Source of the DNA: Marsupella aquatica
Taxonomy: Eukaryota; Plantae; Marchantiophyta
Reading direction: 5' to 3'
Length of the DNA stretch: 64,000 bases
Assembly (NCBI GenBank): GCA_973895155.1
Contig: OZ316893.1
Location: 3,058,430-3,122,429 of the forward strand
The position numbers and the translations under genes are program-made. This document shows positions 24,290 to 61,319 of the stretch, in pieces (positions within the stretch are counted from its first letter, which is position 1; each line of letters opens with the position of its first letter). The notes beneath the pieces were generated by a model. The model was not told the DNA's origin. It did no database searches and was given only the letters and a program-made list of their open reading frames with translations.

Positions 24290-27200
24290 GGAATAAGTTA
24301 ATAAAAAGATGTTACTTATGTGCAGGCAGGGTTTCAGGGATGAGATTTGAGCACCTTTGGATTGCTTCTCTCCCGGCCAATGATTCGGCATCTGGTTTTT
24401 CTGAGTTGTTTCAGTTTGTGCCCATGTTGCGGGGGGTCATATTCCTCTTGTGGTCGCTTAATTGGCTCTTGGGGGCCTGTCGTCTTCTGGCTATGGCCAA
24501 AGAGATTGGTGGTGTCAATTCAAGCCCTTGGCCATGGTTGCGGACCATACTCACATTGTTGCCCCGGTCTCCCTTGTTGGGGAGGCCTATACCCACTTTG
24601 GTGACCAACCTAATTAACCTCATTGGTCATTCAGTTCAGCCTAGGAAGTGTGGGTTTGGTCTTGTCTTTCCCTTCTCGACTCTTTCAGCCCCCCTTGATC
24701 TTGGTATACCCATTTGGCCCAAGGGGACCAGAGTCCTTGGGGTGCTGATTGGGGGGGCTATCTTTTGAGTGGATTTTCTTGAGGTTGTTGTGTCCCAGGA
24801 AATTTTGCATGTTGATCAGCTAGCTGGCGGCCTTGAATTGGGGGATATCCAGATCTCCTTCAATCTTGATTCTGGTCTTGTGTTTTATTCTTGGGGGTTT
24901 CACTTCCACAAAAATGTCATATCACGTGCAATGAAGAATAGGGTCATTTTAGTGGTTCTAAGGGAAAACTTAAGAATTTTTGTAGAAGAACAATAGGGTC
25001 TTTTACATTCAATTTTGAGACTTATAAGAACATTAAAGTCTTTTAAATCTAATTAATCCGTGGACCCCCATGTTCATCCAAGGAATGTTTGTGTGATTAA
25101 ATGAAATCAATTTTCATCAAGGCGGTAACCAACGGTTTTGAGTCTCCCGATGGTGTTGGTGTATGCTCGTACAAAAACAAATGCTCAAAAGATAGAGATC
25201 TATCAAATGGAAGGTTGAATGTGGAGGAATTGAGTTTTCTTATAGGTTTTGCTTACACATTGGAAAAATCATCTTTCAACCATTCTTGATTAATTGTTTG
25301 TGAGTTACATTGAGCATTACCGCCACAAGACAGACTAGAGTTGTAACTCAGCTGTTGGCAAAAGAGCGCTTGTCAATTTGGTGGGAAGAACACACAAAAC
25401 GAACAAGCCGTCACTTCAAACAGTTTCTTTGACAATTGTTTCTTTGACATAGAGGCTGCATTTGGCGTCAACTTGTGTTTAGAGTGAGCTTTAGTTGAAG
25501 ACTATCTAAGAAATGCGAACAATTCAAGCCGAGAAGCAAGCATTGTGGACAAGCGATGGTGACGTAATCAAAGAAATCAATTTGTAGTGGCTAAGTTTGT
25601 GACGGTGACGAGATTGTGATATCTTTTAATCGAGAAAGGGTTTCCAATGAGCCTCAAATTGACAAATTTTGTCAAGTTTCATATGAGTTTTTGAATATCT
25701 TTGCCTTTTCAATGAGTGTTACAATAGTATAATTCTTTTTGATTATGAGTTCATGAATTCTTTTAGCTTTCTAACATTGAGTCTGACATTTACAAATTTT
25801 ATGTCAGATTTTGTCACGGTACTCAAGAGATCAGGAGGTGTTCAATCTTTTTAACTTTCTAATGTGTGACATTGAGATTATTTGTCAAGAAATAGAGAGA
25901 TCATGAGTATCTAAATTTCTCTAGCTTTCCAATGAACCTAACATTGATAGATTTTGTCAAGTACTAAGGAGATGATGAGTTTTTAATTTTACTCTAGCTT
26001 TCCAATGAGTGCCATTGAGAAATTTTATCAAGACATTACTAAAGAGATCACGAGTTTCTAAATCTTGATCTTGAATTTTCCAATGAATCAAACATTGGCA
26101 AATTTTATCAAGTACTAAGGAGATTTATTATTTAGTTTTACAATGTGAAGCCAAATGGGTTTTAATTATGTACATTTCTATAATTGATTTTTTCAAACTT
26201 ACAAACAATTAAAAAATACAAGCATTTTGATATAAAACACTGATATATCTTTGACAAACATCAAAATGGTAACTTTGTTTTACTAAATGACATCTCTTCC
26301 TTTGTATTTTGGTTTTTTTTACGTTTAATATTTACGGCATGGCGCCCCAATGCCATAAATATTAAACGTTGTTTTTGCCACAAACAGGAATGTGCACGTT
26401 TGTTATTGTTAAAAGTAGGATCATTCCTATTTGTGGCTAGTTGTGATGATGTGGCGCAACCTCATGGCAGAGAATTTGCAAGAGACCCCTAATGGGGGTC
26501 CGTAATAATTTTATAGGGGTTAAAAATAAATATTTTTTCTTACATTTTAGGGGGTCCGAGGCCTAAAAATATCACAAGTGATGGGGAGGCCCCCATATAG
26601 TGAGACCCCCGAGGTTTTATTTGCCATCCTTCCTATCTTCTCTGAAGAGTCCCTCCTACTACAATGTTTATGTCCTTGCTCTCTTAATTCATTTGACACC
26701 ACTATGATCTGAGTCAAGTCTTTGGTCCTCATTGGTCTGAGAGCCTAGCCCTTGATAACGAGGATGGTTCTTTTGTGGCTAGGCCGGCTGCATGCGTTGC
26801 CTCCATGGGGAGGTGGTATGGGCATTTTTGGTGGTGGACACTGCTCCTTGCGCATTCCTTGGTAGTTGGGTGCAAGTTGCTCTTGCCTTGGCCTCACATT
26901 TCATTATGGACCTTTGGTCTATATATCCTCTTTGACTTGGTCATGGGAGTGGAGAATGGAGCTCTGCCATGTCAGGTTCGACTTTGTCATGCACAGTCCT
27001 TATTGTTGGGGGAAGTGCACAATGTGGTCCCTGCATTTGAAGGGGTTGTATTGAATGGACAGCCCGGATCAAGTCCCAACAGGTGATTTATGATTGCATG
27101 CACTCTAACATACCCTTTCTATCGACATGCTTCCTGAGTGAGTTTTTTAGGCACTCTTGGACTCAGTTTGAGCACATCTCTTATCCGGTTTGGGCGCTGG

Positions 27201-30243: not shown

Positions 30244-31192
30244 ACATTTTGCCAAAAGATATGGATTTGGTTTGATTCTTCAAGTTTTGGTGTGGCATTT
30301 TTTTTCCTGGTTCAAGATTGTGTTCTTTCCCCAAGAAGTGTCTAAGGAATCCTTGCACAGTTTGGTCAACCCTGTGAGTAGGAGGGGTGGTGACAGCACT
30401 CCACCAATGACCAGTAGGAGTGTGTGTGTGGCGTAGTCCATGGGACTTGATCAAAAGCAGAGCGGCTAGTCGGTAGACTTGATCAAAAATTACATTTCAG
30501 GAAGCGGAAATAAACATACTCATCCTACATGCAATAGAATCCTAATACACTACAACACTACCGACCCCTTTTGCGAACCCCGTCCCATCGCAACTAACAA
30601 AGGACCAAATTATGAAATTCCGGCGTTTGCGAAACGCTACGCATCGCAACCCTTTCACATTCTTTGAAACCCACAGCTTCGCAATCGGACTTTCGCAACC
30701 CCTTCGCAACACCTTCGCACACTGCAAAACTTATTTTATCGCACATAAATCACATTTATGCGATCTCGACAGACTCTTTATCGGTTTGCGACGCGCTCTG
30801 AACTATAACTTATTTGCGAAGCTGTTGTCTTGACAATTCCGTTGCCATTCATATGGTATCGCATAACTGCGTCAGTCAGGGTGTCGCTCAATTGCGGAAC
30901 CAAAAGTATCGCAATGTTCCAATACTCAATGTATGGCAAGTTTGCGATAGTATGGCGTTCGCATGTGTTTCGCAAGGATAGTTTGAGGGCTGGGTTTTGT
31001 ATATTTGGGTTCATAATTGGGTTGGGGTCTTATTGCTCCACATGAAGATACCAAAGCAAAACTTTATATATGCCAAAAATCCCTGAATGTACAAAAATTA
31101 GGGTTTTCTAAAACCCTATGGGGTATCAAATACCAAGACACTGTCCTTTGACTAATCCATATGCCATATGGAGTGAACTACATCTGCATCCT

Positions 31193-33245
31193 CTAGAATG
31201 GAGCCCGCCTACTCCTCTTTGCTGGCCTCTTCCCCTTGTCCTTCTTGCTTTGGGCGGGACGAGCTGGATGGGAGGGGGGTGGTGGTGGCGGTGGCGGTGG
31301 TGGTGGTGCCTGCTGCTCCTCCCCATCTGGCTCATCCTCATCATCCTCATCATCATCCTCCTGGTCTCCTGGTGTGCTAGGTGTGGTAGCACTCCCTGCC
31401 CCTCTGGACCCACTCGTGGTGGCCCCGGTAGTGTCCCCATCATCAGCGCCGCTATCCTCCTCACTGCTATCCTCACTCCCCTCCTGCTCCTCCTTATCCT
31501 GCTTCCATGTCACAAGGTTAATTCGGGTTTAGGGGTAATAGGAAAAATGTATAAACCTTATAAATGGAATGGGTGCGGGTTTAGAAAGGGTACTACAAAT
31601 CACTTACACTAGCCAACTCTGCATCAACCAACTCAAAGAGATGTCTGGCCCCATGCTCTGCCCCTATCTCCATCTCCTTTGTTGTTATCTTGCGGCGGTA
31701 CCTCTTATACTACCACAAAAAAATGAAACACCAAAACATGAGGGGCCCGGGTTAGTAACTAAGGGTACTTAAGCAAAAAAGGAATCCTAAAAAGGGTAAA
31801 AAGGGTACCCTAACCAGAAAAAAACCCCATTACCCTAACAAACATTTGTCACTCGACACTAAACGTTTTTCAAAATGAAACAAGCTTTACGAAACTCCCA
31901 CCTTCGCAAATTCAAATATATTTAAGTTTGCGAAATAGACTGCGAATCGGATTGCTTCGCAATGGCTTTGCAAACCTTACGGGAAAAAGGTTATAATAGA
32001 GTTTGCGAAACAATTGCGAGGCAACCCGCTTCGCAATTGTTTCGCAAACTGTGCTTTTAAAAAAATCCGAGAAATGGCTAAGGCACGCAATGTGTCAGGG
32101 TGACCTAAAACGAAAGGGGAGGCCATAAGGGGTAAAGCAGAGGTCTGCGAGGGGCATTGTAGGCAAGCAAACAACAATTGAAGGCGAAGGAAAAGAAGCA
32201 GGGGAGGAGGGGAGAGGACTCACGAAGGTTGCTTTCAGGCCGGGAAGTCCACCTTGCCCCATCTTGTGTGTGGTCTTGGGGCGTTTGCTGACTCGGTCTG
32301 CTGCAAGGATGAACTTCTGGGGTGGTGTCCCACTTCATCTACGATGTGCTGCAGCTGAGAGACCTTCTCAGCCAATGCCTTGAGGTCTTGGTCTGACTTC
32401 CCGGCCTGAAGTGCCTTGGCCTCCTTCTCCTTCCAGAATTGGAGGTCCTTGGCTGCTTTCAGCTGCATCTCGACCTTATAGAACGCGTTCCACACATCCT
32501 TTGTGAATTGCACTGGCCTCCTCACATTCTTGTACTCCTGCAAGCTTGCCAGGTAGGCCCTCACCTTCCTCCTATCATGGTATCGTGCTTGAGACATTGA
32601 ATTCAAAATTCTATCTGCAAGCCACTGGTCACCAATCTCTGCTCCATTTCTGAATGAATCTTTGACCTGAGTCATTACTTTCCTCTGCTCTGCTCTGCTT
32701 AGTTTCCCCCACTCAACACCTCGTGCAAAGCTAGTCCTCACAGCAAGCCTGATAGTGCTCTTTGCCCCAGTGTAGGCCAACTCAGTAGGAATGCCCTCAA
32801 CCAAGGCAATCAATGGCAGCTTCTAAGTCCTCTCTTCCTCCTTTTTCAGCTGCGCCTCACGTTGTGCTCGAATCTCATCTCGTTCCTCCCTTCTCCTCTT
32901 CTTTTCGAGGGCTGCAGGAGAGAGTACTCCTGCCTTAGCCCTCTCCTCCTTCTTTCGTTTCTTCTCTCTGGCCTTCTCCTCAGCTGCAGCCTTTGCCTCT
33001 TTCTCCCTCTGAGCCTGCCCTGCTGCAACCCCGGTTTGCAAAGCTTGCCCTAGAATTGCACTCAAAGAAGCAATCCCAGCTGGTGTACTCAAATCCAAAT
33101 GGCTCAGCTGTGTGGCATTGAGATGCTCGGCCATCAAATTCATCCATTGATTACTCTCCTCATTCCTGTTCCCTCCATTGCCATTGCCACTCCCACTCCC
33201 ACTTGCCCCTGCCCCATCCCCTCCACGCCCTCCACTAGAATCCAT
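31193..33245 (-). pseudogene. CACTA second gene (TnpA-like), spliced, divergent from the transposase; one nonsense and one frameshift
   Basis: ORFs 32823-33245 and 32235-32813 are in frame across a single TAG. A frameshift near 32330 restores PKTTHKMGQGGLPG; GT donors at ~32223 and ~31607; small exon YKRYRRKITTKE...; acidic/Pro-rich last exon with a basic NLS-like tail. Confidence 0.6.
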
Positions 33246-34608
33246 AGCTATCCAACACCAAGCGCGCGCAAGCTCTCCTCCTGCCCTCCCTCACTTCAAA
33301 AAACGAATGGGCCTCGTAACCCGGCGGGAAGGTCCAAATGCCCAAACAAAACACATTTGCGACGCAGTCCGCATCGCAATTTGCGAATCAGCCCGCTTCG
33401 CAACTAGTATCTCAACTTTCCAAAACCAATGCGAAACCACATGCTTCGCAAAGCCTTCGCAAAGCTGCAGAGACGCGAAAAAACGCTCTCGGGCTCTGTT
33501 TTTCCGAAGCTGTTGCAAAACATTTTGCTTCGCAAATAATGTGACCAAATTTTGAAGCAGGTTGCGAAGTAGGTCGGTTCTCAATATCGTGGCAATTCCT
33601 GGCGAATTTTTTTTTCACATTCTTTCCCTCCTCCTTTTGTTTAGACCATGTAAGTTATACTATGCCCTTTTGTGTAATTAAGAAATTCCGCCGTTTCAAA
33701 TCCCGGCGTTTGTTAGGGTTGGGTCTTGGATGAAGCTGGTTTTTTTAGGGGTTAAAAGCGAGATTACCAGTCAAACCTTCCGTTTTTTAAGCTATACATG
33801 GTGTGGGTGTAGGCTAATTTTGATAAGAGTTGGGTTTTGGTTTAAAATTAATAAGTGAGGAAAGGGTTTAGGATTAAAGTTGGGTTTGGGTTTAGGGTTT
33901 AAGTCTTTAATTTTGGGTTTAAGCAGGGTTTGCATTTATGGTTGTAGGCTTTTAGGGTTCAAGCAAGGGTTTAGGGTTTAAAACAAAAGAGAGGAAGGGG
34001 ATTGGGAGTGAGGGTCTAGGTTTTTGTAATAGGTCAGAGGTTTGGGGGTGAGGGTTTGGAAAAGGCAAAGCAAGGTTAGATGAGATTAATGTTTTAGTTG
34101 TTTTACCATGGGTTTTATGGGTTTTAATGGGTTTTATGGATCTTTTGGGTTTTAATGGTTTTTCCATGGGTTTTATGCTAACAAAGGAGGAGGAGCTATG
34201 ACAACTTGTAGGGTGCGGCACTTTTGCATGAATTGATACTAGCTAATGCGTATGCATCGTGAGAGCCCGGGCATTTGGAGGTACGGACTAAAATAGATGG
34301 GTCTAGTTAGGCTTATTCATGTAATTAAAATTTTTGGTTCCCACTATCTATAAAGAGGACATGTATGTAAGGTGTTCGCTTTGTGTACTTGCAGCTTTTC
34401 TCATACTTCTAGATTCGGTTCATTATTTTAGAGCCACAAGACCTATTGGCACCGCTGAGCCTGGGTCTCAGAAAGCTATTTTTTAGTGTTCCTTTTGTGT
34501 TTGGTTTCATGTCATCATTACTTGAGAAGTTACATTTGTCCAGCTTGATATTGTGATGTTATTTGGTAATAACCCCTAACTTGCAAATTATACATCTTTG
34601 TAGGGGCA

Positions 34609-35759
34609 ATGTCTTCATCTTCTGAGATCTCCACCACAGATTCTTCCTCCTCCGATGAAGATATACCACCTCCTCCTCAACCTCACACGACTGCACCTCC
34701 TCCTCGTGGTCCACCCCGTCAGCTTTGCCAATGTGCCAAATGCGTGGGTCAGGTTTCCCAAAAGTCCTATATATGCACCCAGCATATTGAGAGATATGGA
34801 CGTTACGGACGTCATACAACAGGGGCTTCCTCATCCCATGTGGTAAGTGTTTACGCCTTAGTTTCTACCCTATTTCCACATCGCAATGGTGAAGGTTTTT
34901 AATTTCACACCTCTTGTTGTTTGTTTTGGTTTGGGTGGAATAGGTATCTAGTAGGCCTAGACCTGCGGCATCAGCACCTTATGTCCCATCACAAGGTGTT
35001 CTAGATGCTATAGGCAATGCATTCTCACAAGCCTTGGGTCTAGCAATAGCCCCCTCCAGTCCTAGGGCAGTTGGGGGTGAGCCTGTTGTCCCAAGAGGGA
35101 GAAAGCGTTCCAAGAGACGGCCCCGAGGGGATACTGATTTGTACAAGGCAGTGGTTACCGGTAGGTGGGGTGATTGTGAGTTTACTGGCAGATGTGTTCC
35201 TGTCATCAAGGACTGGGATCCCCAGACTCTTGGTTTGCCACAAGAGCTTTCCTATGGTGAGGAGGTAGAGGTTTGGGGAAGACGTTGGGTTATCAAACCT
35301 TCCACACTTGGGGATAGACATGGCTATGGAGTTTTTGCTTGTGAAGACATCATTGTGGATACCGAGAGTGGTAGTGGTGGACGCGGTCGAGAATGACCTA
35401 CGTTGTTTCCTTATGGTGGACCCATCTACAAGAGAAGACATTGGAACATGATCCTTGCACAACATCCTGAGGGGAAGACTTATGCCTTGGAGTTAGATAC
35501 TTTTGATGGAAACACTAGGAGGTATAGTGAGCAGCGGGTGATAGATGGGGACCCCATACGAACTGGGAATATAGCTGGTTTCATAAACAGTACTGTGGGG
35601 ACTCGCCCCAAGCGTAGGCAAAATTGTGAGTGGGTTTTCATTGAGGGTCCTCCACCAGCCCCTTATGGCCAGACATATCATCATGACCATTGTCTGGTTG
35701 TAGCTACTAGGACCATTCACTCAGGTGATGAGTTGTTTACTCACTATGTGTGGGATTAG
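34609..35759 (+). pseudogene. SET-domain (lysine methyltransferase-like) gene inside CACTA; exons 34609-34842 and 34944-35759; single premature TGA at 35394-35396
   Basis: Phase-0 GT-AG intron keeps the frame. SET motifs: IKPSTLGDRHGYGVFA, FPYGG, IDG...GNIAGFINS...QNC, VVATRTIHSGDELFTHY. Exon 1 encodes CQCAKC-x9-CTQH. Confidence 0.85.
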
Positions 35760-35902
35760 AAAATGACCATACACATGGCGTTTGGCCACATTTTGTATTT
35801 ACACCAGTACCGATATTATTTCATGTTTGCACACCCCCATATATTCTTCTACATGTTGTAACTATTTTCTTTGTAACTTTCAATTGTTTGCATTGTTTTT
35901 AG

Positions 35903-38900
35903 AATGTGCGACCCTCTCAAAATATGTTACCGCGGAGATTAGAGCAGCATATCGGGAAATGGGTATGCCGGAAGAAGGACAAGGCTCTGAGTCACATTCC
36001 TCATCAAGTGACAGTGGAAGCAACAACCCTGATCGCAATGTACCAAGAACATATGAACAGGTTATTGATGACCAAGATAGAGCCATGGATGATTTTATGG
36101 TTGATTGGTTTGGTGTTGACGTCCCTGGTGATGATGCTGAGGTGTCTGCTGATCAAGGAGGTCATGTGCCCCCCAATGATCCACGACCAAGACACACCCC
36201 CGAGGGACAGCGCCAATGGGAGGAAGCAGAGGAACATGCCCGAACTCCTATCTATGAGGGTGCTCGTTTGAGTCATCTTTCTGCTATCTTGGGGTTGATG
36301 AATCTATAGGCCAAACACAAGGCAAGCAATGCCTTGTTATCTGATATGTTTGCACTTTGCCATGACCTTATGTTACCTTCTGGCAATGTGTTGCCAGGAA
36401 CTTGGAAGGAGGCCAAGCGTGTTCTCTCATCAATTGGCATGGAATATCATATCATTCATGCATGTGTGAATGATTGCATGTTATTTCATGGGGCCGATGA
36501 GAAGAAGACACAGTGTACTGAATGTCATGAGCCACGGTATGACCCCAACATGATTACAAAGAAGGTGCCAAGAAAAGCTGTTCGTTGGTTTCCCATCATT
36601 CCTCGGTTGTTGCACATGTACAGGTGTTCTGATTTGGCAGAGTTGATGGTATGGCATAAGACTCATCGATCAGGGCCTGGTGTTATGCGGTTGCCAATTG
36701 ACTCTCCTGCAGTCAAACTATTGAGGAAACATGGCCAGACTTTGCACATGATCCTCGTCATGTGAGGTTGGGATTGGCATCTGATGGGGTTAGTCCTCAT
36801 GCCCTTGGAGGCAAGGGAAGACCTACATCAGTTTGGCCTGTGGTTGTGATGAATTACAACCTTCCACCATGGCTATCCATGAAGAAGGGGTTCCTCTTGC
36901 TGTCTTTGATTATTCTAGGTCCAAAAAAGGTGAAGAACTTTGACACTTATTTGGCACTATTGATTGGAGAACTCCAAAAACTGTGGGGTGGAGTGTGGGC
37001 ATATGATGGCAGGAAAAATACAGGAGGCATTCCACGTGTATTTAAATTGAGAGGGGTAGTTTGTTGGACAATGCATGACTATCCTGGTAAGATGACTTTT
37101 TGACCATATGCCACCCTTCTTTGATATGCTCTTTAATATACTTGTTTGTCATGTGACAACCCTAACATTTAGTCTGGTTTTATTTTTGGTGTAACCAGGG
37201 TTTGGCTTTGTCTCTGGATTGCAAACTCAAGGGTACAAAGCTTGCTCCACCTGTGGTCCACAATTGCAAGATATGGCAATTTGGTCCCCATGGCTTAGGA
37301 AGATTGTTTACATTGGGCATACAAAGTTTCTTCCGATGGGGCATGAGATGAGGTCTGACCCACTTTTATTTTCCTCCTTTGACATGCCCCTTGGTGATAT
37401 GCGGGAAATTCCGGAACCAACAACTTTTGGGCATTGGAAGTCACTAGCTGATAGGGTGGCAGACCCTGATGATCCCCTCACCTTTGATGGTATTGGGTTG
37501 ACGAGGTGGAGTATACTAGCCAGTTTGCCCTATTGGTCAGAGTTGAAGATCCGCCATCTTTTAGACCCCATGCACATAGAGGGAAATGTGGGGAAGGCGT
37601 TGATAGCTCATTTTTATGGGGAGAAGGACACTAACTTCAGGGAGGCATGTGAAGAGTTGGAAATGCATCCAGATGTATGGGTACAAGTTGATCCTGCCAC
37701 AGGTTTGGAACATCGTCTTTCTGCTCCTTGGGTGCTTAGTGTTGGCCAAAGACGTGAATTCCGGAATCGTATAGGGGAGATGCGGTTTCCTACAGGCTAT
37801 GGTGCCAATTTGAGGAAAGCTTTTGGGATGGAGGACAATCACAAATGGTCACGGTATCTCAAGACACATGACTATCACCGCTTATTGCAGCATATATTGC
37901 CAGTGGCAATTATAGGGTTGGGGACCAAAGAAGTGCAAGATGCCATTTGGTCATTGGGTCGTTTGTTGAGATGGATATGCTCAAATGAGATATATGTGGA
38001 AGAGATTCCTGGAATGGAGGTATTGGCTGCTGAGGTGGTTTTCAAGTTGGAGAAGGCCCTCCCTCCTTCCTTCTTTGATTGTCAGGTTCATTTGCTTGTG
38101 CATCTTGTGAGGGAGGTTGCCATTGCTGGTCCAGTTCATTGTCGATGGATGTACTGGCTTGAGCGTTACATGTCAGTCTTGAAGGCTTATGTACGTAACC
38201 GTGCACGAGTGGAGGGAAGCATAGCTACAGGATACTTGGCTGCAGAGAGCATGTTTTATTGTAGTAACATCTTGGCCACCATTGATCAGACTTTACCACG
38301 TACTTGGATGGAGGAGAGGCAAGAGGAGGAGGACCGTTTAACAGGAGCAACAAAAACACGCATGCTTACATCAACAGAGTGGACACAGTTGAATACATTC
38401 ATGTTGAGTAATAGTAATGTCATGGATGAATGGAGGGAGTTTTATGACAATGCCAAAAGAATGAGTCAAAGGGCAAGGATTTTTCCTAAGTTGCATGAGT
38501 TTATGAAGGAAAAGTTGGTTGAGTTGGATGGCATTTTGGCACAAGGAGGAGATGTCTCACAGTTTCCTACTATGACAAATGACATTCGGACCATTGTTCA
38601 TGGCCCTTTGAGAGTGGTAACATCCAAGACGGCCATGTGGACCCAAGGGAGACACTTCAGGTTTCACTAGTTCCTAACCTTGTTTTCCATATTCATGTAC
38701 TACTACTTAAGATATAGTAATCATTTTACTTAAGATAAGTGTGTTTTTCTCTTTTGGTATGAAAGGTTCCTCATAACATGATTAGTGTTTTTTGTGTAGT
38801 AGTAACAATATATGGGTCTTGTTAATTTCAGGATTTCTTCCCTTGATGAGAAGAGGGCTCGTACTTTTGATTGTGGAGTTCAAGGGCAGTTTTGTCAGGA

Positions 38901-39318
38901 CTCCCGGAGTAGCCGACATGACAGGAACATTGTTCGTGATGTTGTGCCACACTATGGGAAGATAGAGGAGATTTTGGTGGTCTCATATGACAACCAATCT
39001 AAGTTTGAGGAGTATGTCTTCAAGTGCAAGTGGTTCAAAGTGAACCTTGTTGGTAATAATCACATTGTACTCCACGATGAGAGTGGGTTTACACGGTTGA
39101 GGACAAGTGCCACTAGTTTTCAAGCATCTCATTGGCAAACGTCAGAGCCATTTACTTTCCCATCTCACTTGGAGCAATGTTTCTACATTCCATACCCCTT
39201 AAACCCAGAGTGGTCACTTGTCATCACATATGTGCCACGGTCTCGTTCCATTGTTTCAGACAAGCCAGACACTATTTTTGTGTCAGATGTAGAGGACATT
39301 GAAGGTGACCAAGTGTGA
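35903..39318 (+). pseudogene. CACTA TnpD-type transposase (Transposase_21 / DUF4218 / DUF4216-like); exons ~35903-37086, 37199-38660, 38832-39318
   Basis: IHACVNDCMLF, RLGLASDG, YNLPPWL, HDYPG, LDPMHIEGNV, KTHDYH, FFDCQVHLLVHL, GPVHCRWMYWLER, HYGKIEEI, FKCKWF. Nonsense TAG at 36307-36309 and a frameshift at ~36718. Confidence 0.93.
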
Positions 39319-40604
39319 GAGACACTTATGGATATTTAAACCAAAAATCTATATCATGGATTGTTCATGTTGTTTCTTAATTAATATTTCATACACCATT
39401 AGTGTGGTAGGTATTTTCATTTTGGACTCCTACTTTCAAAAGAGGTCATGCATATAAGTGACATGGGTACTCCCTCCCTTATCCCTCCTCCCTCTTTGAA
39501 CCCAAACTCTCCTTCCTCTTCCAAAAACTCCATAGCTTTTTCTCCTCCCTCCCTCTTCGCTAAAGTCTCTCCTATTTTTAGTAAACCCTCTTTGGACTCC
39601 CTTCTTCCTCCGTCCCTCATCCACCTTCCAACTCCCTTCCTCCCTCTTTCACCTTTCACCTCCCTCCCTCCTCCTCCCCCATTCAAACTCTAGCCTAGAT
39701 GCACACACAAGTCTAACATAAACGTTTGCGAACTGTTTGCGAAACTAAACAAATCCCAACCAAATCGCAATTTTGCCATTTAAACCGTTTCTCAATTATT
39801 CCATACTATACGCTTCACTATTTTGCGATATCCAGACCATCCCACCTTTACCATCCACATCGTTTCGCACATTTGCCATACAAACCCATCGCAAATTGTT
39901 TGAAGCTAACCTTTTCGCAAACATCCTCCAATACTAATTGTTTCGCAACATTAATGTTACCGTGGTTTCGGACTTTCGGAGCGGTCGCGGAGCCTTCGTA
40001 ATGTGTTTTGTAATCTCTGTAGTTTCGCAAAATATTGTGATACAATAAAGTTCGCAAAATGTTTGCGATGCAAATCGCATGGAAGACCAAAGTTGCGATA
40101 CCACAAGTATCGCAAATTGCGATGCGTATTGAGTCATCAACGGTTTGAAGCATCTGGAATCGCAAACGTGTGTCCGGACGCAAATGAGCTTCGCAAAAGG
40201 GCAAAATATGTTGTAGTGATAGCGTCCCTCCACGTTCCCGTCATACGATAACAAACGATTTTAGCAGGAGTAAATACGTATTTGCCATGTAAATTGTTTG
40301 ATAAGCAGGTGACACTTGGTTGGGTGCCTTTTGTTTTGGCTGTTTGAAACATAGTCTTTCTTGATATATCTAGACACAAAGAAGGTTTTGTCTAATTAAT
40401 AACAAGTCAAAAATAGATTTGAGTAGCAAGTGTCATGTGTTGTTGGTCTTGACAATACTGTCATATGAAGTCAGTGCAAAGCGGTCCTCTATGTAGGAAG
40501 CACAAGTTTCACTTGACATATTTGTATACTCTTCTGTACGCGCGTATACTCTTAAATTTAACTAATAATACAGATTTCTATGTAAAAAATCTTTATTAAA
40601 TTTC

Positions 40605-45826: not shown

Positions 45827-47358
45827 CTACAAACTTTTCAAACCCGTCTCTTCACCTTTATCACGTTTCATCAGGCCCTTCTTTGGGTCGATAAGAGTAC
45901 CATAGACCCAATCCATGAATATGGTAAGATGGCCGTAGTTGTACTTGTAATGAGTGTGGTGGAAGTTATGATAGCCGGCTCCCAAAATTCCATAAACACC
46001 TCCTTCAATTGTGTCGTGGATGTTGGCGGTCCAGATCTCCTCCAGGAAGAACAAGATGTAGTACGTTTGAAAGTGCATCGGCACCAAAAACAGCGCGAAG
46101 ACAAGTGGACTGGCTTGCAATATTCCATCGAATGGGTTGAATGCTAGACCTGCGACGAAAAATATTGCAGTGAGTCTCTCAGATGATTTGGAAACTGTAG
46201 ACCAAAGACTCTTAAAGGGTGTTCAATGATGGAATATACTCAAGTAAAGAGGCATCGAGAGTCTTTTCCGGTCCAAGAAGTTACATGCAGACAACAAGAC
46301 ATTTATCAAATAATCTGCTTCCACTGTGCGTGTAATTTCCAAAGCTAGTAGCTTTAATTAGTGCTTGGAATGGAGTCCTTTGAGAAATTGAACAAACCTG
46401 CGAATGGAGATACAGTATTCAGCTTCGAGTAAAAGTGGTGGCTGTGGTGCATGTACTTGTAGAGAAGTGGTGTGTGCAACCACCTGTGAAACCAATAAAC
46501 CCAGAACTCACAGAAGGCCAGGTAAGCACCGATCTGCACGGTGTAGGCTACTAATCCAACCTCTTCCACCTCTGCGTAACAGAGCGTCCATCCTTTCTCG
46601 ACAATATACTCCGCAAAAGTCGGAAGAGCAGTAATAACCGGAAGTCCCACGAAGCTCATGACCATCTGCTCCATCACCGGTTTCATTGCAAGGTTACTGC
46701 CTGCGAAGATTGGAAGCCAAGTAAGTAGGACCTCAGATAACGTGTCCCTCAAAATGAGGTCTGCTCTCGAGATCTGGTCTCAAAACCAAAGAACAAATTA
46801 ATCGAATAAGAATGAGGGACGCAGGAATTCCTTTTAAACAATTTGATGTTCAGAATTGGCACCGCCAATTTATCCAACAGCCTCGTCTGAGCACATACAA
46901 AAACTCTGCCGTATACGCAGATCATGTATTATGTATACCTTACGTTGACTTGACGTCACCGAGTAGGAAACGGATTGAAGCTTACCTCGATAGGTCGGCT
47001 CTTTCTGCCACCAGTAACCATGGAAATAGATAGCTCCTGCAGACAGGAAGTAGATAACCGTGCCAGCCCACCAGTTCCGAAGCCATGTTATGCTCCAATG
47101 GGGAAGTTGACCTCTAATAGGAGCTCGATTAACCGGTCCTAAGATCATGGAGTTTATATCATCTGTCTGTTTCACGAAAAGGTAGTTGTACTCGGCAGAG
47201 TACTTGACAGGCTTTCCCCCCACCACGTCGTCGAACTGAGAATTTGTCGAATACAGCGCGGTACCATTAGCTTCTTGGGCCGTGGTGACGGAGACGACAG
47301 AAGCACCGATGATGGTAGCCGCAGCAAGGGCCATCATCGGCAGCCACATTCGCACCAT
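45827..47358 (-). CDS. DWF7: Delta(7)-sterol C5(6)-desaturase-like; exons 47358-46986, 46700-46398, 46149-45827 (332 aa)
   Basis: Two phase-1 GT-AG introns give one open frame. His boxes HRWLH, HHSHH, HNFHH; WLRNW, SPFAG|[40 protein letters not shown]-like TATAAAA at ~47760-47766. Confidence 0.93.
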
Positions 47359-48461
47359 GATGCGATCCTCGAGTAGCCTACCTTCTTGCGTGCTCACCCA
47401 AAGTGCTCCCAGTTAGCTACACAAATTAAACTGCACTTGAAAATTCCATCAAAAGTCCATCATTCGGTACATTGCTAAAAAGTAGCTCATCTACAATCAG
47501 CTTCCCACATTTGGCAGTCTAGGGGCAAAAGCATTAGTAGTGCAAACGTTTGCACCCAGCGGCAATTCTGAATCCAAGCATACCTGCAGATCAGATAGAT
47601 TTCAAGTCGACGTAGAGATGTATCGAGTCTCCAAGCGACAGTCGCAAGACTTTTCCGGAGCTCAGAGGTCAGACTGAAAGGGAGCATCCGTCGCTGCGAG
47701 GCCTGAGCAAAGTAACTGGGATCCGCTGTTGGGTATGATTGTCTGCATGGTGCGCGAGGTTTTATAGAGAGGTCGAGAGAAGCTCAAACGTACAGGAGAA
47801 GACGTGGGCGGCAAAAGTATTATCTAATTGCTAACGTGTCACCATTAGGGTATTATCTAATTGCTCCTGTTTTTTACCCCATTTTCGTTCCTTCTTGGCG
47901 TGTGTGTCAGAGTGTGGTCCTTTGCCCTATGGCTACCTCGTGCACACCATATTCGTTTTTATCTTGGGGTGTGTGTTTAGGGTCTTTGATCTATTGCTAC
48001 ATCCGAGATACAATGACACACACGCCAATAGTATACCATTTTGTGTCTATTGTGTTCAAGCACATCATCATTATTGTTTTGGTTAGGAGTCATGATGGAT
48101 AGAGTCTTGGTTTATGTTCCCAAAACATAAACCCAAAGTCCAATTACACAAAATTGATCAGGCCCGAAAGGGTGACAAAATGGGAGAATATTGGTTTATG
48201 TTTTGGCGAACTCAGACTGGAACGAACAGCAACATCGGGGACTAAGAGGGCAGTGTACAGGGCCCCAGGAAAGTGGGGAAGCATTAATAAATTCAATGTA
48301 GATTTAATGCGGGGTATTTATGTTTTATTTGGGTCCTCGATCCCCTGCTACATGATGTCAATGGATTAAATTTGTCAATTGGCCACTTTAAACCACCACA
48401 CCATATATTAACTTCTATAATAAATAGTTGCACCTTTTATAGCGTGGTCGTCATTTGAACT

Positions 48462-55600: not shown

Positions 55601-56592
55601 CGGGGCCGCCTTCCCGGTGGAGCATCATGGATACCCTCAGGTGTATGGTGGGCTTCAATTCCCTTCCGAATAAAGCCCTCATAGAGATTGCTGCGATTTG
55701 TGGCAGGCTGGGATTGAGGTCTATTGGTGATAGATGGTCGACGGAGGATGGATGTTGGAAGGACCTACCGCTACGATGGCACAATATGCGTGGCTTTTCT
55801 GATGAGCATCGAACGATGGCTCGTTCGTTCTTGGAGTGCCTTTGGCGGGCAGACAATTGCCGATCTGAATACTACTTGTATGCCAAGCAGTGGAGATGGA
55901 CAGACAGACCGGAGCCGCTGAAGGACTTCAGAATCGAGAATTGTAGAGTGTATGATTTCTTAAGGCCTAAGACTGCATCCCATGACCGCCTCAATCGGAT
56001 CTGGTCACTGTTCTGGCCTGAGATGCGCTGGAATATGTGTTGGGCTAAGCTTTGGGGGTCTGATCTTCCGATTAGAGGCAAGACCTTTGTGTGGAGGATT
56101 ATTGTAGGGGGCCTTTTCACTGGGGCACGTGCGCTCAGAATGGAGGTGAGTAATGGAGATTGCAAGCTTTGCAAAGGATGGCTGGAGACGATCCCCCACG
56201 TGTTCTTCCACTGTACACATGCGGTCCGTTGCTGGCTACTCTATCAGGATTCGTTGCAGATTCTGAGCTTGCCAATGGGACGAGGTCTGATGGCTCTTTT
56301 AGAGGCGGCCTGCGGGAAGGAGCCTGTGCAAGTGGCCCGGATCTTCGTCTTGCACCATATTCTGTGGCGACTCTGGACGGGAAGGAACACTCACATGTTT
56401 CAGGTGGGGGGGAGACGGGTGTTTGACTTGGGACTTGTCCTGAATGAGGCAGCGGAGAACGCTTTTGCTGTTAGTCGGCGCTGCCCCCCGGGCAGGAAGT
56501 GCACCCGCCTGATTCGGGCAAAGGCATGGATGGATGACCTGCGTAGGGTTTGGGTAGGCAGTGGCAGCATTGCTGTCAATTCTTTTGCTTGA
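52672..56592 (+). CDS. L1 ORF2: AP endonuclease, reverse transcriptase, C-terminal zf-RVT (1306 aa, open)
   Basis: SWNVCGL, GDFN, SRLDRIY, SDHDP, PGPDG, WRPLTMLN, LDFEKAFD, GVRQGCPLSPLLF, FADD, YLGAP, CKLC..ETIPHVFFHC. Confidence 0.97.
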   Translation: MDGRLRVASWNVCGLCEPNRKHIVKNWVRSLKVPLGILALQEVKVDQFRLDMALRAILPSYQHFSSKPEEGKGGTALLVHPELRVVGSGTLDMGRAVWAVIEKGAVTFGVACIYAPNSARLRALLWNDLKVMLPHNDWVLCGDFNMTERRTDSTGTSPLIRGREAEFWRFLKMRFNLTDTWDIRGGAAGPRFTWRRNRNGEMSQSRLDRIYVSERGEWLCEVELLHDGGSALSDHDPVMLNVQLSGLIETVERGKVSLFMANPAFLRRREDILRLEAAWRVGRGDFVDPRLRFAKGSWKMRQTLKEIQAQPRTTEMEMAAQQAQLRVLKMAIIEHHSEGDIAEFMDAEDTLHASELEEAHRGRRLARIKWLSEGDESTKFFFATVRAKRSRESMPSLNREDGSTVADPGEILKEVERFCQTLYSPEPRLEAELEEVRVARDRLLGNTRFALSGAENLRMERLPSYQEVKEVLWLLPCDKTPGPDGMTAEVYRACWEFLGQDLVDMIQEFWLTGALDVGICEGIVKFIPKKPDKRFLRDWRPLTMLNTIYKLIAKILAIRLKPILHMIISPQQTGFIPGRHILENISLAWLTCDWVHNKRREALFLKLDFEKAFDRVSHDYLWECMHLLGISGRFTMLVRALLAQASSRALVNGLLSNTFELKRGVRQGCPLSPLLFVISTQPLMDFLDTEMAEGQLCGLQITPGFTICYRLFADDVGMFIPATERAFEEATTALECYEMASGARLNLKKSVVIPLALERIPEWLNNTGCLISRRGEIQKYLGAPFGESLSTEQLHKFCLDKICARLSVWSNKLLSFTGCSLLVKQVLLAIPIYHVMYCKASVGLAKKMIALSREFLWGYNATGGRKVPLVAWDRMALPRVEGGLGFRDFRSHSDALLSQWFTKALNAPETEWSRMLAANLKLMGWTNYKIIRQNGYSFQDRLLLCTPRSFSGLPYTTGLWRSWELVRAHLFFDPGRTGPPSRWSIMDTLRCMVGFNSLPNKALIEIAAICGRLGLRSIGDRWSTEDGCWKDLPLRWHNMRGFSDEHRTMARSFLECLWRADNCRSEYYLYAKQWRWTDRPEPLKDFRIENCRVYDFLRPKTASHDRLNRIWSLFWPEMRWNMCWAKLWGSDLPIRGKTFVWRIIVGGLFTGARALRMEVSNGDCKLCKGWLETIPHVFFHCTHAVRCWLLYQDSLQILSLPMGRGLMALLEAACGKEPVQVARIFVLHHILWRLWTGRNTHMFQVGGRRVFDLGLVLNEAAENAFAVSRRCPPGRKCTRLIRAKAWMDDLRRVWVGSGSIAVNSFA

Positions 56593-57499
56593 GGGGGACC
56601 GTGGCTTCCTGGATGATCTGACTGTTGGATGCCCTCTTATGTTGGGCTTGGGCTTGTGTTGGTGATTGATTTTCCCTTTTCCACTGTTTGGTGGTCGGGG
56701 GGCTGTGGGATATGCGCTGGTGATGTGTGCCTGTGCGCTGTGTGTTTGGCTTTGTTTTATGTCGCTTGGTCTGGCCTTCTGGTCTGTCTGTTTGCCCTCC
56801 CCGTGGGGCTTTTCGCGGGGGAACCAAAAATTATAAAAATGTTCCCATTCCGAAGTGTGAAATAAAGAGTGACACGTTTTCCAAACAATAAATAAAGGGG
56901 AATGTTAGGGAATGATAATACACAATAATCAAGTATTTTATAGATCATCTATATATAATATTTTATGTACCATCTAAGTATAGTACTATACCCCATGATA
57001 ATCTATGTCATAAGAAGAGTTTAATTGATTACAAATATTACATAGTGTAATAGAAAACATCAAACCATAAAATAGTACAAAAGCGGTAAAAGAGGGGGGG
57101 TGGAGTCCGGGAGGTTTACAAGGAATAAAAAAAGAAAGAAAAATACAAAGACAAAAATAATTCTTAGCCGGTGATACTTTGTGGTTGTTCTCACTCATTT
57201 TTTGCCCCATGACATCTTTTAGTAGATAACATTTTTTGGACAATGAGATCTTTTTAACCCAAAAATCTTTTACTCAATTATATATTTTGGGTCATGATAT
57301 GTTTCTTACTAACATCTTTAGTATAATGGCATTCATTATGCTTTGACATCTTTTGCCAATTTTATATATATATTGACCCAAAATATATATCTTATAACTT
57401 AGACATCTTTTGGGCAATGATATTTTTTACTTAATGACATCTTTTGAGCAAGAGCATATAATTTATTGACATTTTTTGTACATCTTTTCCTTAACGATA

Positions 57500-58435
57500 T
57501 TTAATGCTACTACATGTTTTACTTCACAACATCTATGACTAATGACATTTTTTTACTTGACCGACAGATTTGGAGTCATGGCATAGTTTTACTTGACGAC
57601 ATCTTTGACATTATAACAACATCTTTTTACTTGACCAGACCAATCTTGGACATAACCACATTATTGGCATCACTACCTCGATCACAACAACTTTTTACTT
57701 GACAACATCTTTAACTTGATGACATATGTTTTACTTCACAACAACTTTGGCAACACAATTTCTTTTTACTTGACAATATATTTGACATAACAACATCTTT
57801 GGCGCCCCGACATCTATTTACTTGGCAATATCTTTCACGTGACGACATCATTTTACTTGACGGTATCTTTTTACTCCATGACATCGTTGGAGACATGACT
57901 TCTTTTTTTCTGAACAACATCTTTTTACTCCACTGCTTTTTTTTAACGCCATTTTTTACTTTGCGTCATCTTTGGGGGACACAAAATCTTTTTACTTCAC
58001 AACATCTTTGGCAACTCAACTTTGTTTTACGATATCTTTTTACTTCATGACCTCTTTTACATAACAACGTCTTTGGCGACACAATTTCTTTTTTCTTAAC
58101 GACATCTTTTGTGCAACGCACGGGTTTTCTTCACAACATCTTGGGCAACACTACATTTTTTCTTAAGAACACCTTGGGCGACACAATATCTTTTTTCTCA
58201 ATGATGTCTTGGGCAGCATGATATCTTTTTTTCATCGACATCTTGGCCAACACAACATCTTTTTCCTCAAGGACATCTTGGCCGACACAACATCATTTTT
58301 CTTAACACCCTCTTGGCCAACACAACATCTTTTTCTCAACGACCTCTTGGCCGACACAACATCTTTTTTCTCAATGACCTCTTGGCCGACACGACATCTT
58401 TTTTCTCAACCAAATTTTGGCCGACACGGCATCTT
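57500..58435 (+). repeat. Helitron-internal ~35-bp minisatellite (degenerate 5', more regular 3')
   Basis: TTGGCCGACACAACATCTTTTTTCTCAATGACCTC-like units. Confidence 0.85.
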
Positions 58436-58789
58436 TTGTGCAACGCACGGGTATTGAGCTAGTACTGTATATAACAAATTGTGGAGAGAAACTAGAGTGG
58501 GGTGTAGGTTAATTTCTAGATTGAAGCCCGGGTTGAAGCCTTTAGGGGGTGACTCTAGGGTTCCACAAAATTTTATGTGAAGGATAAGATAAATGTATTT
58601 AAAATTGATTATCTGCATGGTGATTTTAACTTCATTCTATTAATTAACATTCAAAGAATTATGGGCATTCATGCTCCTAATATATATGGGGGGTGCATGT
58701 CCAAGACCTCCCTTTTCCACATTCCACTCACTTTTCTCCTCTATATACCAAGCCAATTTGTTTCACAACTGCAGGCAAATCCTAAACTA

Positions 58790-60797
58790 TCATACACAAT
58801 TGCGCCACTTTTTAGAGTGGTTGTCATTCAAATTTGCACCTAAGTTGCACCATTGTCCAAGACAAGCCAGAATAATCACACAAGACACCAACAAAAAATG
58901 AAAGACTTTAACACAATGCACGAGGATCAAGGAGGATACTCCCTCCACCCGTCCCTCCATGATCCATGCAAGTAAATATTGTACATACTCACATGCAAGT
59001 AAGTATTGTACATGTTCAATATTGTGTGCATAATTTTGTATAATACTGGTAAGAGGACTTTAAATAATTGTTGATAATATTTTAGTCACTAGATCAATAG
59101 AAAATTGTTCTCCCCATATTTGTGGTGACTTTTACAGTCAATTGCAGTGTCATTTTCAATGTCAAAATACAAAAGTAATAAGGCCCAAAGACATAGTGAA
59201 GTGCATGGCACGGGCGTTGATGGCAAGGTGTCGGGCGAGGGGCACACTTGCAATGTAGGGCAGCCCCTCAAAGGGCTCTAGTCTCGCATGGGTGGGGACA
59301 GTGGGGGGGAGCGAGTGGAGTGAAGGTGAATGAGAAAAAGAGAAGACCAAAAATAGGAAAAGGGGGAAAAGGGGGAGGGGAGGTTAAGGTTTAAAAGGAA
59401 CATAAGAGAAAAAGGGAGAAATAGGAAAAAACCACCTCTCATTTTGTTATACTTTTGTGGTTGTCATAGCCAGTCTTTTGTACAATGACATCTGTTATTC
59501 AATATTTTTTTGTGCAAGGAGAAAAAATTAAAAAAGGGAACGTTTGTGGCTGCGGTAGTCAGTATTTTGCACAATGATATCTTTCACTCAACAAAAGTTT
59601 TTATGCAATAATGTATTTTAACAATTATTATTTTTATTCAACGATATCTTTTGCAGCACGATCTATTTCTCAACCACATCTTTAACCAAACAACATCTTT
59701 TGTGCAACGCACGGGGATTGAAAGGATACCTACAGAATGGTCATCTTTGCTAAACCCTAAACCCTAAAACACTAAATAAATCATGAATCCGATAATATAA
59801 CGTTGCACCAATTTATAGAGTGGTCGCCATTCAAATGCAGGGGCATTTTGGGTAAAAAAACAAAACAAAGAAAAAGACTCGCTCGGACTTCTTTCCTTGA
59901 TTTTTTACTTCATAACATCTTTCACATAACGACAGCTTGGGTGAAACGACACCAATGATTTTTCTTATAACATCTTTTACTTCACAATATCTTTGGCAAA
60001 ATGACACCTATTTCTTAACAACATCTTTCACATAATGGCATCTTTGGCAAAATGACTCCCTTTTTCTTCTAGACATCTTTTTACTTTGTGACATCTTTCA
60101 CATGTAACAACATCTTGGGCGACACGACATCTTTTTTCTTAACAACATCTTTTGTGCAAAGCACGGGTATCCTGAACAATGTCTTTGCCAACACAACATC
60201 TTTTTTTTAACAACATCTTGGCTGACAGGACAATTTTTTTCTTAATGACATCTTTTTTCTCAACAATTTCTTGGCCGACACGACATCTTTTTTTCTCAAC
60301 GACTTCTTTTCTCTCAATGACCTTTTGGGCGACACGACATCTTTTCTCTCCATGACCTCTTGGCCGACACGACATCTTTTCTTTCAACAACCTCTTGGCC
60401 GACACGACATCTTTTTTTCTCAATGACATCTTGGCCAACACAACTTCTTTACTCTCAATGACCTCTTGGGCGACACGACATCTTTTCTCTCCACATCCTC
60501 TTGGCCGACACAACATCTTTTCTTTCAACAACCTCTTGGCCGACACGACATCTTTTTTTCTCAATGACATCTTGGCCAACACAACTTCTTTACTCTCAAT
60601 GACCTCTTGGGCGACACGACATCTTTTCTCTCCACATCCTCTTGGCCGACACAACATCTTTTCTCTCCACAACCTCTTGGTTGACACAACATCTTTTCTC
60701 TCCACAACCTCTTGGGCAACACGACATCTTTTCTCTCCACAACCTCTTGGCTGACACGACATCATTTTTTCTCAATGACATCTTGGGCGACAGGACT
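58790..60797 (+). mobile_element. Further tandem/nested copies of the same Helitron family
   Basis: 5'-subterminal motif (TTGCACC..TTTA(T)AGAGTGGTCG.CATT) at ~58800 and ~59802; 3' hairpin motif GTGCAA(C/A)GCACGGG at ~59702 and ~60154 without terminal CTAG. Confidence 0.5.
60110..60792 (+). repeat. 35-bp minisatellite with a 141-bp (4-mer) higher-order repeat
   Basis: 60395-60535 is repeated almost exactly at 60536-60676. Confidence 0.9.
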
Positions 60798-60937
60798 CCC
60801 TAGGCCCTTAGTCTTACTAATACAGGGCGGACGTGCGAACGATGCAAGGGTATTTTTAATACATTGCAAAGTAATTTTTATAATAATTTTTAAAGTAGGC
60901 AACATCCCCATATATCCTATTGGAACATGTGTTCCTT
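60798..60937. mobile_element. Left end of a MITE related to 50290-50954
   Basis: CCCTAGGCCCTTAGTCTTACTAATACAGGGCGGACGTGCGAACGATGCAAGGGT vs CCCTGGGCCCCCAGCATTATTAATAATGGGTTGGACGTGCGAACGGATGAAGGGT. Confidence 0.65.
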
Positions 60938-61319
60938 GGAATGGGAACATTTTTATAAATTTTGGTTCCCCCGCAAAAAGCCCCACAGGGAGGGCAAACA
61001 AACAGACCACCAGGCCAGACCAGGCAGCATAAAATAGAGCCAAACACTCAACGCACAGACACTCAGCCAACGCAAATCTAACATCCCCCCAGTCCCCAAA
61101 ATAGTGAGAAAGGGAAGATCAATCACCAACAAGAGCCAATGCTCCAACATAAGAGGGCAACACTCAATCAGAGCAGCCCGGAATCAGTGGTCTTAGGGGT
61201 ACAAAGCACCATCCACATCAAACAATATCAAGCAAAAGAAGTGATAGCAATGCTACCACTGCCTAGCCATCCCCTACGCAGGTCATCAATCCATGATTTG
61301 GCCCAAATCAGGCGGGTGT
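60938..61319 (-). mobile_element. 3' end of a second L1 of the same family (inverted)
   Basis: Reverse complement matches 56502-56851, including the end of ORF2 and GGGGAACCAAAA.TTATAAAAATGTTCCCATTCC. Confidence 0.92.

Follow-up and report, generated by a model that had tools for sequence, protein, structure and literature searches.

In the CACTA superfamily of DNA transposons, the maize element En/Spm and the Arabidopsis element ATENSPM3 are known to produce TnpA and TnpD by alternative splicing (PMC13547354; bioRxiv 10.64898/2026.08.24.746577). Changes between the spliced and the split form have occurred among Spm families (PMC13547354), and a tandem helix-turn-helix in TnpA-like proteins has been described as the Spm DNA-binding domain (bioRxiv 10.64898/2026.08.24.746577). 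In this study, we analysed a CACTA element in a stretch of 64,000 nucleotides of the liverwort Marsupella aquatica (GenBank assembly GCA_973895155.1, contig OZ316893.1, positions 3,058,430 to 3,122,429), referred to as the window, in which an exon encoding a SET domain lies inside the transposase gene. Like En/Spm and ATENSPM3, this element belongs to the CACTA superfamily and is predicted to yield a transposase and an accessory protein from one transcription unit by alternative splicing. The parallel with TnpA and TnpD drawn in a preliminary description of the window holds for the coding strategy; it does not extend to the second product, which is a SET-domain protein and not a TnpA-type helix-turn-helix regulator. 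In contrast to En/Spm, the accessory exon of the window element follows the first coding exon of the transposase and precedes its body, with the N-terminal coding exon shared, and a further, divergent accessory gene is present on the opposite strand.

SET genes have been reported in HarbingerS and MuDR transposons of Phytophthora, in Helitrons and in the red-algal Plavaka family PAG2 (PMC12730594; bioRxiv 10.1101/2025.02.11.637652). These are, like the window element, DNA transposons that carry a SET gene, and Plavaka falls within the EnSpm/CACTA superfamily. Their SET genes are separate accessory genes, which is how transposon-borne chromatin enzymes were previously known, and PAG2 joins SET to a DNA methylase domain; the accessible text on these transposons mentions neither nesting in the transposase gene nor a shared exon, and they come from oomycetes and red algae, not from land plants. 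CSB-PGBD3 resembles the window element in having an in-frame alternative terminal exon within an intron, with shared upstream exons and a second protein as the outcome (PMC2268245). The arrangement is reversed, as CSB-PGBD3 places a transposase exon in a host chromatin gene, whereas the window shows an exon of chromatin-enzyme type in the transposase gene of a mobile, high-copy element. SETMAR (Metnase) is a single fused, domesticated protein of a SET domain and a mariner transposase. It shares with the window element the presence of both domains in one gene; in the window, by contrast, a conserved stop terminates the SET part itself, and a given protein is predicted to contain one domain or the other.

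Among 64 angiosperm CACTA transposases surveyed, none was reported to have mobile elements in its introns, as far as the accessible text of the survey goes (PMC4158355), and the tested anti-silencing factors described in the accessible sources are non-enzymatic regulators only (VANC, TnpA). Our literature search found no description of a CACTA transposase gene with a SET exon inside it, nor of SET-carrying CACTA elements in bryophytes, and Repbase Reports, subscription papers or supplements may hold one. SET-carrying transposons and Spm alternative splicing are thus each known, and their combination was not found in print.

Results

One donor and two in-frame acceptors

The layout, with a SET exon that separates the first coding exon of the transposase from its body, is real, conserved and under selection. 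As the preliminary description had proposed, the exon with SET is nested between an exon encoding a Cys/His motif and a body that matches the Pfam families Transposase_21, DUF4218 and DUF4216. We consider it likely, from the comparison of related sequences, that in intact copies one donor and two in-frame acceptors would yield either a Zn-SET or a Zn-transposase protein from one transcript. The splice positions were read as first described. The Cys/His exon is open for 234 nt (34609-34842) and ends in the phase-0 donor GTG|GTAAGT at 34843; the near acceptor AATAG, which ends at 34943, joins it in frame to the SET exon, and the far acceptor TTTTTAG, with its TAG at 35900-35902, also gives a phase-0 join. 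The SET stop (35760-35762) closes the SET frame before the far acceptor is reached.

One metagenome scan supplied 36 related loci from peat metagenomes, all retrieved through SET; nearly all belong to one family whose proteins match Sphagnum models, and L002 represents a further lineage. The GT of the Cys/His donor is kept in 21 of the 21 loci that cover it, the AG of the near acceptor in 26 of 29, and that of the far acceptor in 20 of 21; L002 has the far acceptor as well, on a contig that ends six bases past it. Both acceptors are in-frame TAG codons in every lineage, and therefore neither the SET frame nor the transposase frame extends upstream. In-frame splice sites are thus conserved for both products. 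Gene predictions from Calypogeia and Sphagnum are spliced at the near join, with an intact Cys/His-SET protein of 343 residues in the Sphagnum type, and the model P0093 takes the far acceptor.

In the window copy, the phase-0 join at 35902 is one base off the transposase frame. The preliminary description had rightly seen that a single base is needed for this join and had placed it, as an extra A, in the CAAAAT run near 35918. That insertion is listed in no run, though all four runs cover the position; the base is a G behind 35940, which the sister contigs insert in 4/4 runs. The far acceptor is in the transposase frame of the sisters because of this G. Two other defects of the window transposase, a TAG stop at 36307 and a base absent behind 36718 that shifts the frame, are likewise resolved in the sisters, which have C at 36307 and an added A near 36718. 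The SET exon of the window copy alone carries a premature TGA at 35394, where the sisters read G at all depth in 4/4 runs. The window copy is therefore broken for both products. Sister copies and the peat-metagenome relatives allow an in-frame join of the Cys/His exon to the transposase. Of the alternative splicing first suggested, the conserved in-frame sites for both products stand, as a prediction from sequence, and the repair base does not.

All three coding parts show purifying selection, with ratios of nonsynonymous to synonymous substitution (dN/dS) between 0.09 and 0.23. The transposase gave 0.09-0.13, SET about 0.20-0.23, and the Cys/His exon about 0.09-0.11 when the window was compared with two lineages. 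An alignment of the Cys/His exon across loci leaves out L018, whose exon carries a stop. Judged by these ratios, the core of the Cys/His exon is under strong purifying selection.

Where the transposase body begins

Similarity in the transposase frame begins at the far acceptor, with 9/12 residues and 25/36 nt identical downstream against 21/60 nt, with stops, upstream. The conserved peptide starts seven codons ahead of the first Met (codon 8). In a diverged sister subfamily (X2 record 10), 19 substitutions and five indels were counted in 35770-35902 against one substitution in the 21 nt before the Met; the last 29 nt of the spacer differ by one change, and the alignment of this record to the window stops at 34848, at the end of the donor. 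A profile search among 1.84 billion representatives returned 48 matches, ten of which show the start of the transposase exon: five have Met at codon 8, three have His, Val or Gln there, and two start at codon 9. The two that reach further upstream, P0118 and P0138, carry Gln exactly at the position of the window's TAG and Pro at codon 4; we infer that this Gln reflects a CAG acceptor. A protein search for long transposases gave only three distant matches.

The Cys/His exon

A six-frame search of the 64-kb window finds the pattern CxCxxC-x11..15-H-hydrophobic-xxx-G a single time. This single occurrence, together with the three splice sites kept in relatives, sets the observed layout above chance. 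The motif CQCAKC followed by CxxH, first given with a spacing of nine residues, is present with a spacing of ten; its fourth Cys is Ser in P0001. What had been called exon 1 is the first coding exon, as it has its own acceptor at 34602-34603, five bases ahead of the ATG, and two conserved non-coding leader exons lie upstream of it. The spacing CxCxxC-x13-HI-xxx-G is identical to that at residues 40-64 of P0050, an angiosperm transposase of 1,395 residues, inside its PF13963 (Transpos_assoc) match at 5-77, and the best profile match of the exon within P0050 falls at this same domain. An Atlas feature search with the exon gave no usable match. It is plausible, on sequence resemblance, that the exon is a divergent equivalent of PF13963; by the Pfam bar (cut-off 27.7 bits) it is not a member. 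The suggestion that SET would share a targeting domain of the transposase was not borne out, as the resemblance to the transposase-associated motif is weak and the Spm DNA-binding domain is a different domain.

The SET exon and its relatives

SET (PF00856) was recognised in the window at 34944-35759 with 27.2 bits, against a Pfam cut-off of 22.4. The first Met of the window's SET exon is residue 169, inside the SET domain, and the SET of the window's family therefore needs an upstream exon. SET lysine methyltransferases carry the catalytic motifs GxG, YxG, NHS and ELxxxY. In the family studied here, GYG, YGG and ELFxHY are conserved; the window's SET protein has no post-SET Cys cluster. A PDB sequence search with the SET protein found no relative, only two matches at chance level. 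Its structural neighbours in the Atlas are SET clusters of several classes at a template-modelling (TM) score of about 0.5, which indicate no substrate, and our own predicted structures, with predicted local distance difference test (pLDDT) values of 44.6 and 50.0, were too poor for fold comparison.

The closest named relatives over the SET exon are gene models of Calypogeia fissa (74%) and Sphagnum spp. (55-73%), with Riccia sorocarpa as a distant one; open-frame SET models occur in many Sphagnum genomes (a 360-member cluster). The scanned viral contigs held no relatives. The SET cores of P0001 (Calypogeia fissa) and P0004 (Sphagnum jensenii) are identical at 150 of 196 residues (77%), and synonymous sites are unsaturated between the window and Sphagnum-type loci, including L015 (proportion of synonymous differences, pS, 0.49-0.69). 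The likeness of liverwort and peat-moss SET and the unsaturated synonymous sites may point to horizontal transfer. The distant models P0042, P0125 (Riccia sorocarpa) and P0127 (Calypogeia fissa) keep pieces of the same order, namely a Cys/His remnant, a SET-like part and the transposase, and the layout is therefore likely to be older than the window's family.

Points against the splicing model and alternative explanations

Several observations weigh against the production of both proteins from one shared exon. A phase match alone has a chance of 1 in 3, and most of the 36 loci are near-identical copies, so that the splice-site counts stand for three or four lineages and not for 21-29 events. 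The Cys/His exon compares poorly with PF13963 (hhalign E 0.013, probability 3.4%, with 33 of 2,000 shuffles scoring equally), and the Pfam scan named as a check in the preliminary description gave no match to this domain, with the exon searched up to E 10 and P0001, P0004 and P0036 up to E 1. The SET scores, 21.7-27.2 bits with relatives included (relatives 21.7-24.9), are near the threshold, and the family reads NST or NSS where the consensus has NHS. The seven codons before the transposase Met show proportions of nonsynonymous and synonymous differences (pN 0.22, pS 0.68) in the right direction, on too few sites for significance. Both the window and all 18 matched loci retain Met at codon 8, and an internal transposase start is therefore possible. 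Among the 14 proteins found with the Cys/His exon, all gene predictions, not one joins it directly to the transposase, and in P0028, P0070, P0093 and the Riccia model P0125 a part of SET is fused with the transposase, at a point that varies. The joints 34842>34944 and 34842>35903 were in none of the contigs of the four runs, whose kind is unrecorded, a result that says nothing on expression.

The conserved Met bears on an arrangement of tandem genes, in which the Cys/His exon serves SET alone and the transposase starts at a Met of its own (35924 or 35959), with a promoter in or behind SET or with a non-coding leader exon joined straight to 35903. Besides the window and the matched loci, half of the ten informative profile matches have this Met, leader exons with good donors exist, no gene model joins the Cys/His exon to the transposase, and changes between alternative splicing and separate tandem genes are on record for Spm families (PMC13547354). 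We nevertheless regard this arrangement as unlikely. The seven codons ahead of the Met are in frame and change conservatively across lineages, while the spacer upstream takes indels, and three relatives have no Met at codon 8. The transposase would moreover be without the N-terminal Cys/His motif found in P0050, and the far acceptor lies just 140 nt after the SET stop.

The fused gene models could instead describe a single Cys/His-SET-transposase protein, somewhat like SETMAR, made through a donor inside SET that bypasses the SET stop; P0093 even uses the same far acceptor. These models, however, cut SET at different places and lose its C-terminal ELFxHY motif, whereas the window and all 19 aligned loci retain the SET stop, and no conserved phase-0 GT in SET comes near the score of the Cys/His donor (best 1.5 against 5.0 by a rough weight matrix of our own), which makes such a fusion very improbable. 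An independent SET gene nested in the intron, with its own promoter and start and with the Cys/His exon joined to the transposase only, is likewise very improbable. In its favour, the SET exon of Sphagnum-type copies and of L002 has a Met within its first few codons, from which models of 260-263 residues start. In the window's family, however, no Met precedes SET residue 169 and a TAG closes the frame immediately upstream; 26 of 29 loci retain the near acceptor, and the intron in the window measures only 101 nt.

Proposed mechanism and significance

In the preferred model of one donor with two acceptors, a promoter upstream of the leader exons would give a single pre-mRNA. Splicing of the donor at 34843 to the near acceptor would produce a Cys/His-SET protein of about 350 residues with SET as the terminal exon, and splicing to the far acceptor would remove SET with a 1,060-nt intron, leaving a transposase that begins with the Cys/His motif. 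Such a transposase would parallel those of angiosperm CACTA elements, which begin with the transposase-associated domain. As to its origin, a SET exon may have been captured into a phase-0 intron of the transposase gene, whose promoter, leader exons and start codon it then used. The SET protein would be a putative methyltransferase of histone or other lysines that may help the element against silencing.

A bolder proposal, which we hold to be doubtful, is that a splice switch in a mobile bryophyte CACTA family chooses between jumping and writing chromatin. Through the shared Cys/His module, the SET isoform would associate with the transposase or settle on the element, where it would methylate histones against host silencing, and the family would have spread with its cassette between liverworts and peat mosses.

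If the model is true, one donor with two acceptors would couple the amounts of SET enzyme and transposase in a land-plant CACTA family, would show an accessory gene arising by exon capture inside a transposase intron, and would offer a direct way to probe the role of the N-terminal Cys/His motif of the transposase. For annotation, our data give the warning that many bryophyte "SET domain-containing proteins" are parts of transposons.

The CACTA element and its other components

The interval 30548-40218 is a complete CACTA element in a decayed state (Table 1). Its termini begin with CACTA and end with TAGTG; the 10-bp repeat CACTACAACA is perfect and present at both ends (30548, 40218), and a 3-bp target site duplication, ATA, flanks each side. 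L006, L009, L034 and L036 carry the left-end 10-mer too, about 3.2-3.5 kb ahead of their Cys/His exons, and sister contigs of the element were found in 4/4 runs. As expected of subterminal repeats, the + strand of the element has 17 copies of TTCGCAA, in clusters near both ends and around 31900-33560, and the remaining 54 kb of the window has none. The transposase is of Tnp2 type, with PF02992 at 118, DUF4218 at 111 and DUF4216 at 32.7 bits, all above the Pfam cut-off.

Table 1. Features of the CACTA element in the window, in window coordinates.
Feature	Coordinates	Strand	Remarks
Complete CACTA (En/Spm) element, decayed copy of a high-copy family	30548-40218		9,671 bp; terminal inverted repeats and ATA flanks
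Left terminal inverted repeat	30548-30557	+	10 bp, perfect; target duplication ATA at 30545-30547
Divergent multi-exon accessory gene, broken in the window copy	31196-33245	-	Conserved in related loci by tblastn/tblastx; 3' end approximate
Predicted non-coding leader exon	34212-34280	+	AG..GT bounds kept in L002, L003, L027, L034
Predicted non-coding leader exon	34395-34475	+	Lengths 81/83/85; stops in all frames across lineages
First coding exon, predicted to be shared	34604-34842	+	ATG at 34609; 78 codons; CxCxxC-x13-HI-xxx-G motif
Short intron form	34843-34943	+	101 nt, donor to near acceptor; same junction in Calypogeia and Sphagnum gene models
SET exon	34944-35762	+	Pfam SET; own stop TAG at 35760-35762
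Spacer	35763-35902	+	140 nt; 3' end of the long (1,060-nt) intron and, by prediction, of the SET message
First transposase-body exon	35903-37086	+	Phase 0 in sister copies; Transposase_21
Transposase exon	37199-38660	+	C-terminal part of Transposase_21, DUF4218; bounds read from sequence
Last transposase exon	38832-39318	+	DUF4216; stop at 39316-39318
Right terminal inverted repeat	40209-40218	+	Target duplication ATA at 40219-40221

The first leader exon measures 69, 66 or 64 nt across lineages, with no common frame. The donor of the second (34476) is CT in the window copy and GT in the sister copies. A coding role was considered for the leader exons, as those of the window happen to be in frame with the ATG, and is excluded by the lengths and stops of the relatives. 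In L004, L006, L009, L018, L023 and L029 the first leader exon is absent, and upstream repeat-rich sequence replaces it or joins directly. Short near-palindromic motifs at 34260-34275 and 34440-34455, within the leader exons, are kept across three lineages and are possible binding sites or RNA structures. In L011, L013, L015, L025 and L027, the transposase exon that corresponds to 37199-38660 is interrupted after residue 198-199 by an additional intron of about 150 nt, which the window copy does not have.

The divergent accessory gene had no significant Pfam match in two pieces from the window or in seven further pieces. The N-terminal half of its product is charged and helical, and the gene is kept in related elements; it is a candidate for the role of TnpA.

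Other features of the window

Elsewhere in the window, a lone TTGTAGTG at 25582-25589 is possibly the end of another, older CACTA element. The region 56500-61320 contains about 3.6 kb of a degenerate 35-bp tandem repeat within long inverted repeats, whose arms are 88% complementary, with related sequence at 459-790; this structure resembles a foldback element or a miniature inverted-repeat transposable element. Two pairs of direct repeats, 10642-10941/16180-16479 (5.5 kb apart) and 48527-48666/56854-56993 (8.3 kb apart), are probably long terminal repeat retrotransposons. A host gene on the - strand at 45827-47412, with exons of the fatty-acid-hydroxylase family (PF04116), probably encodes a sterol desaturase.

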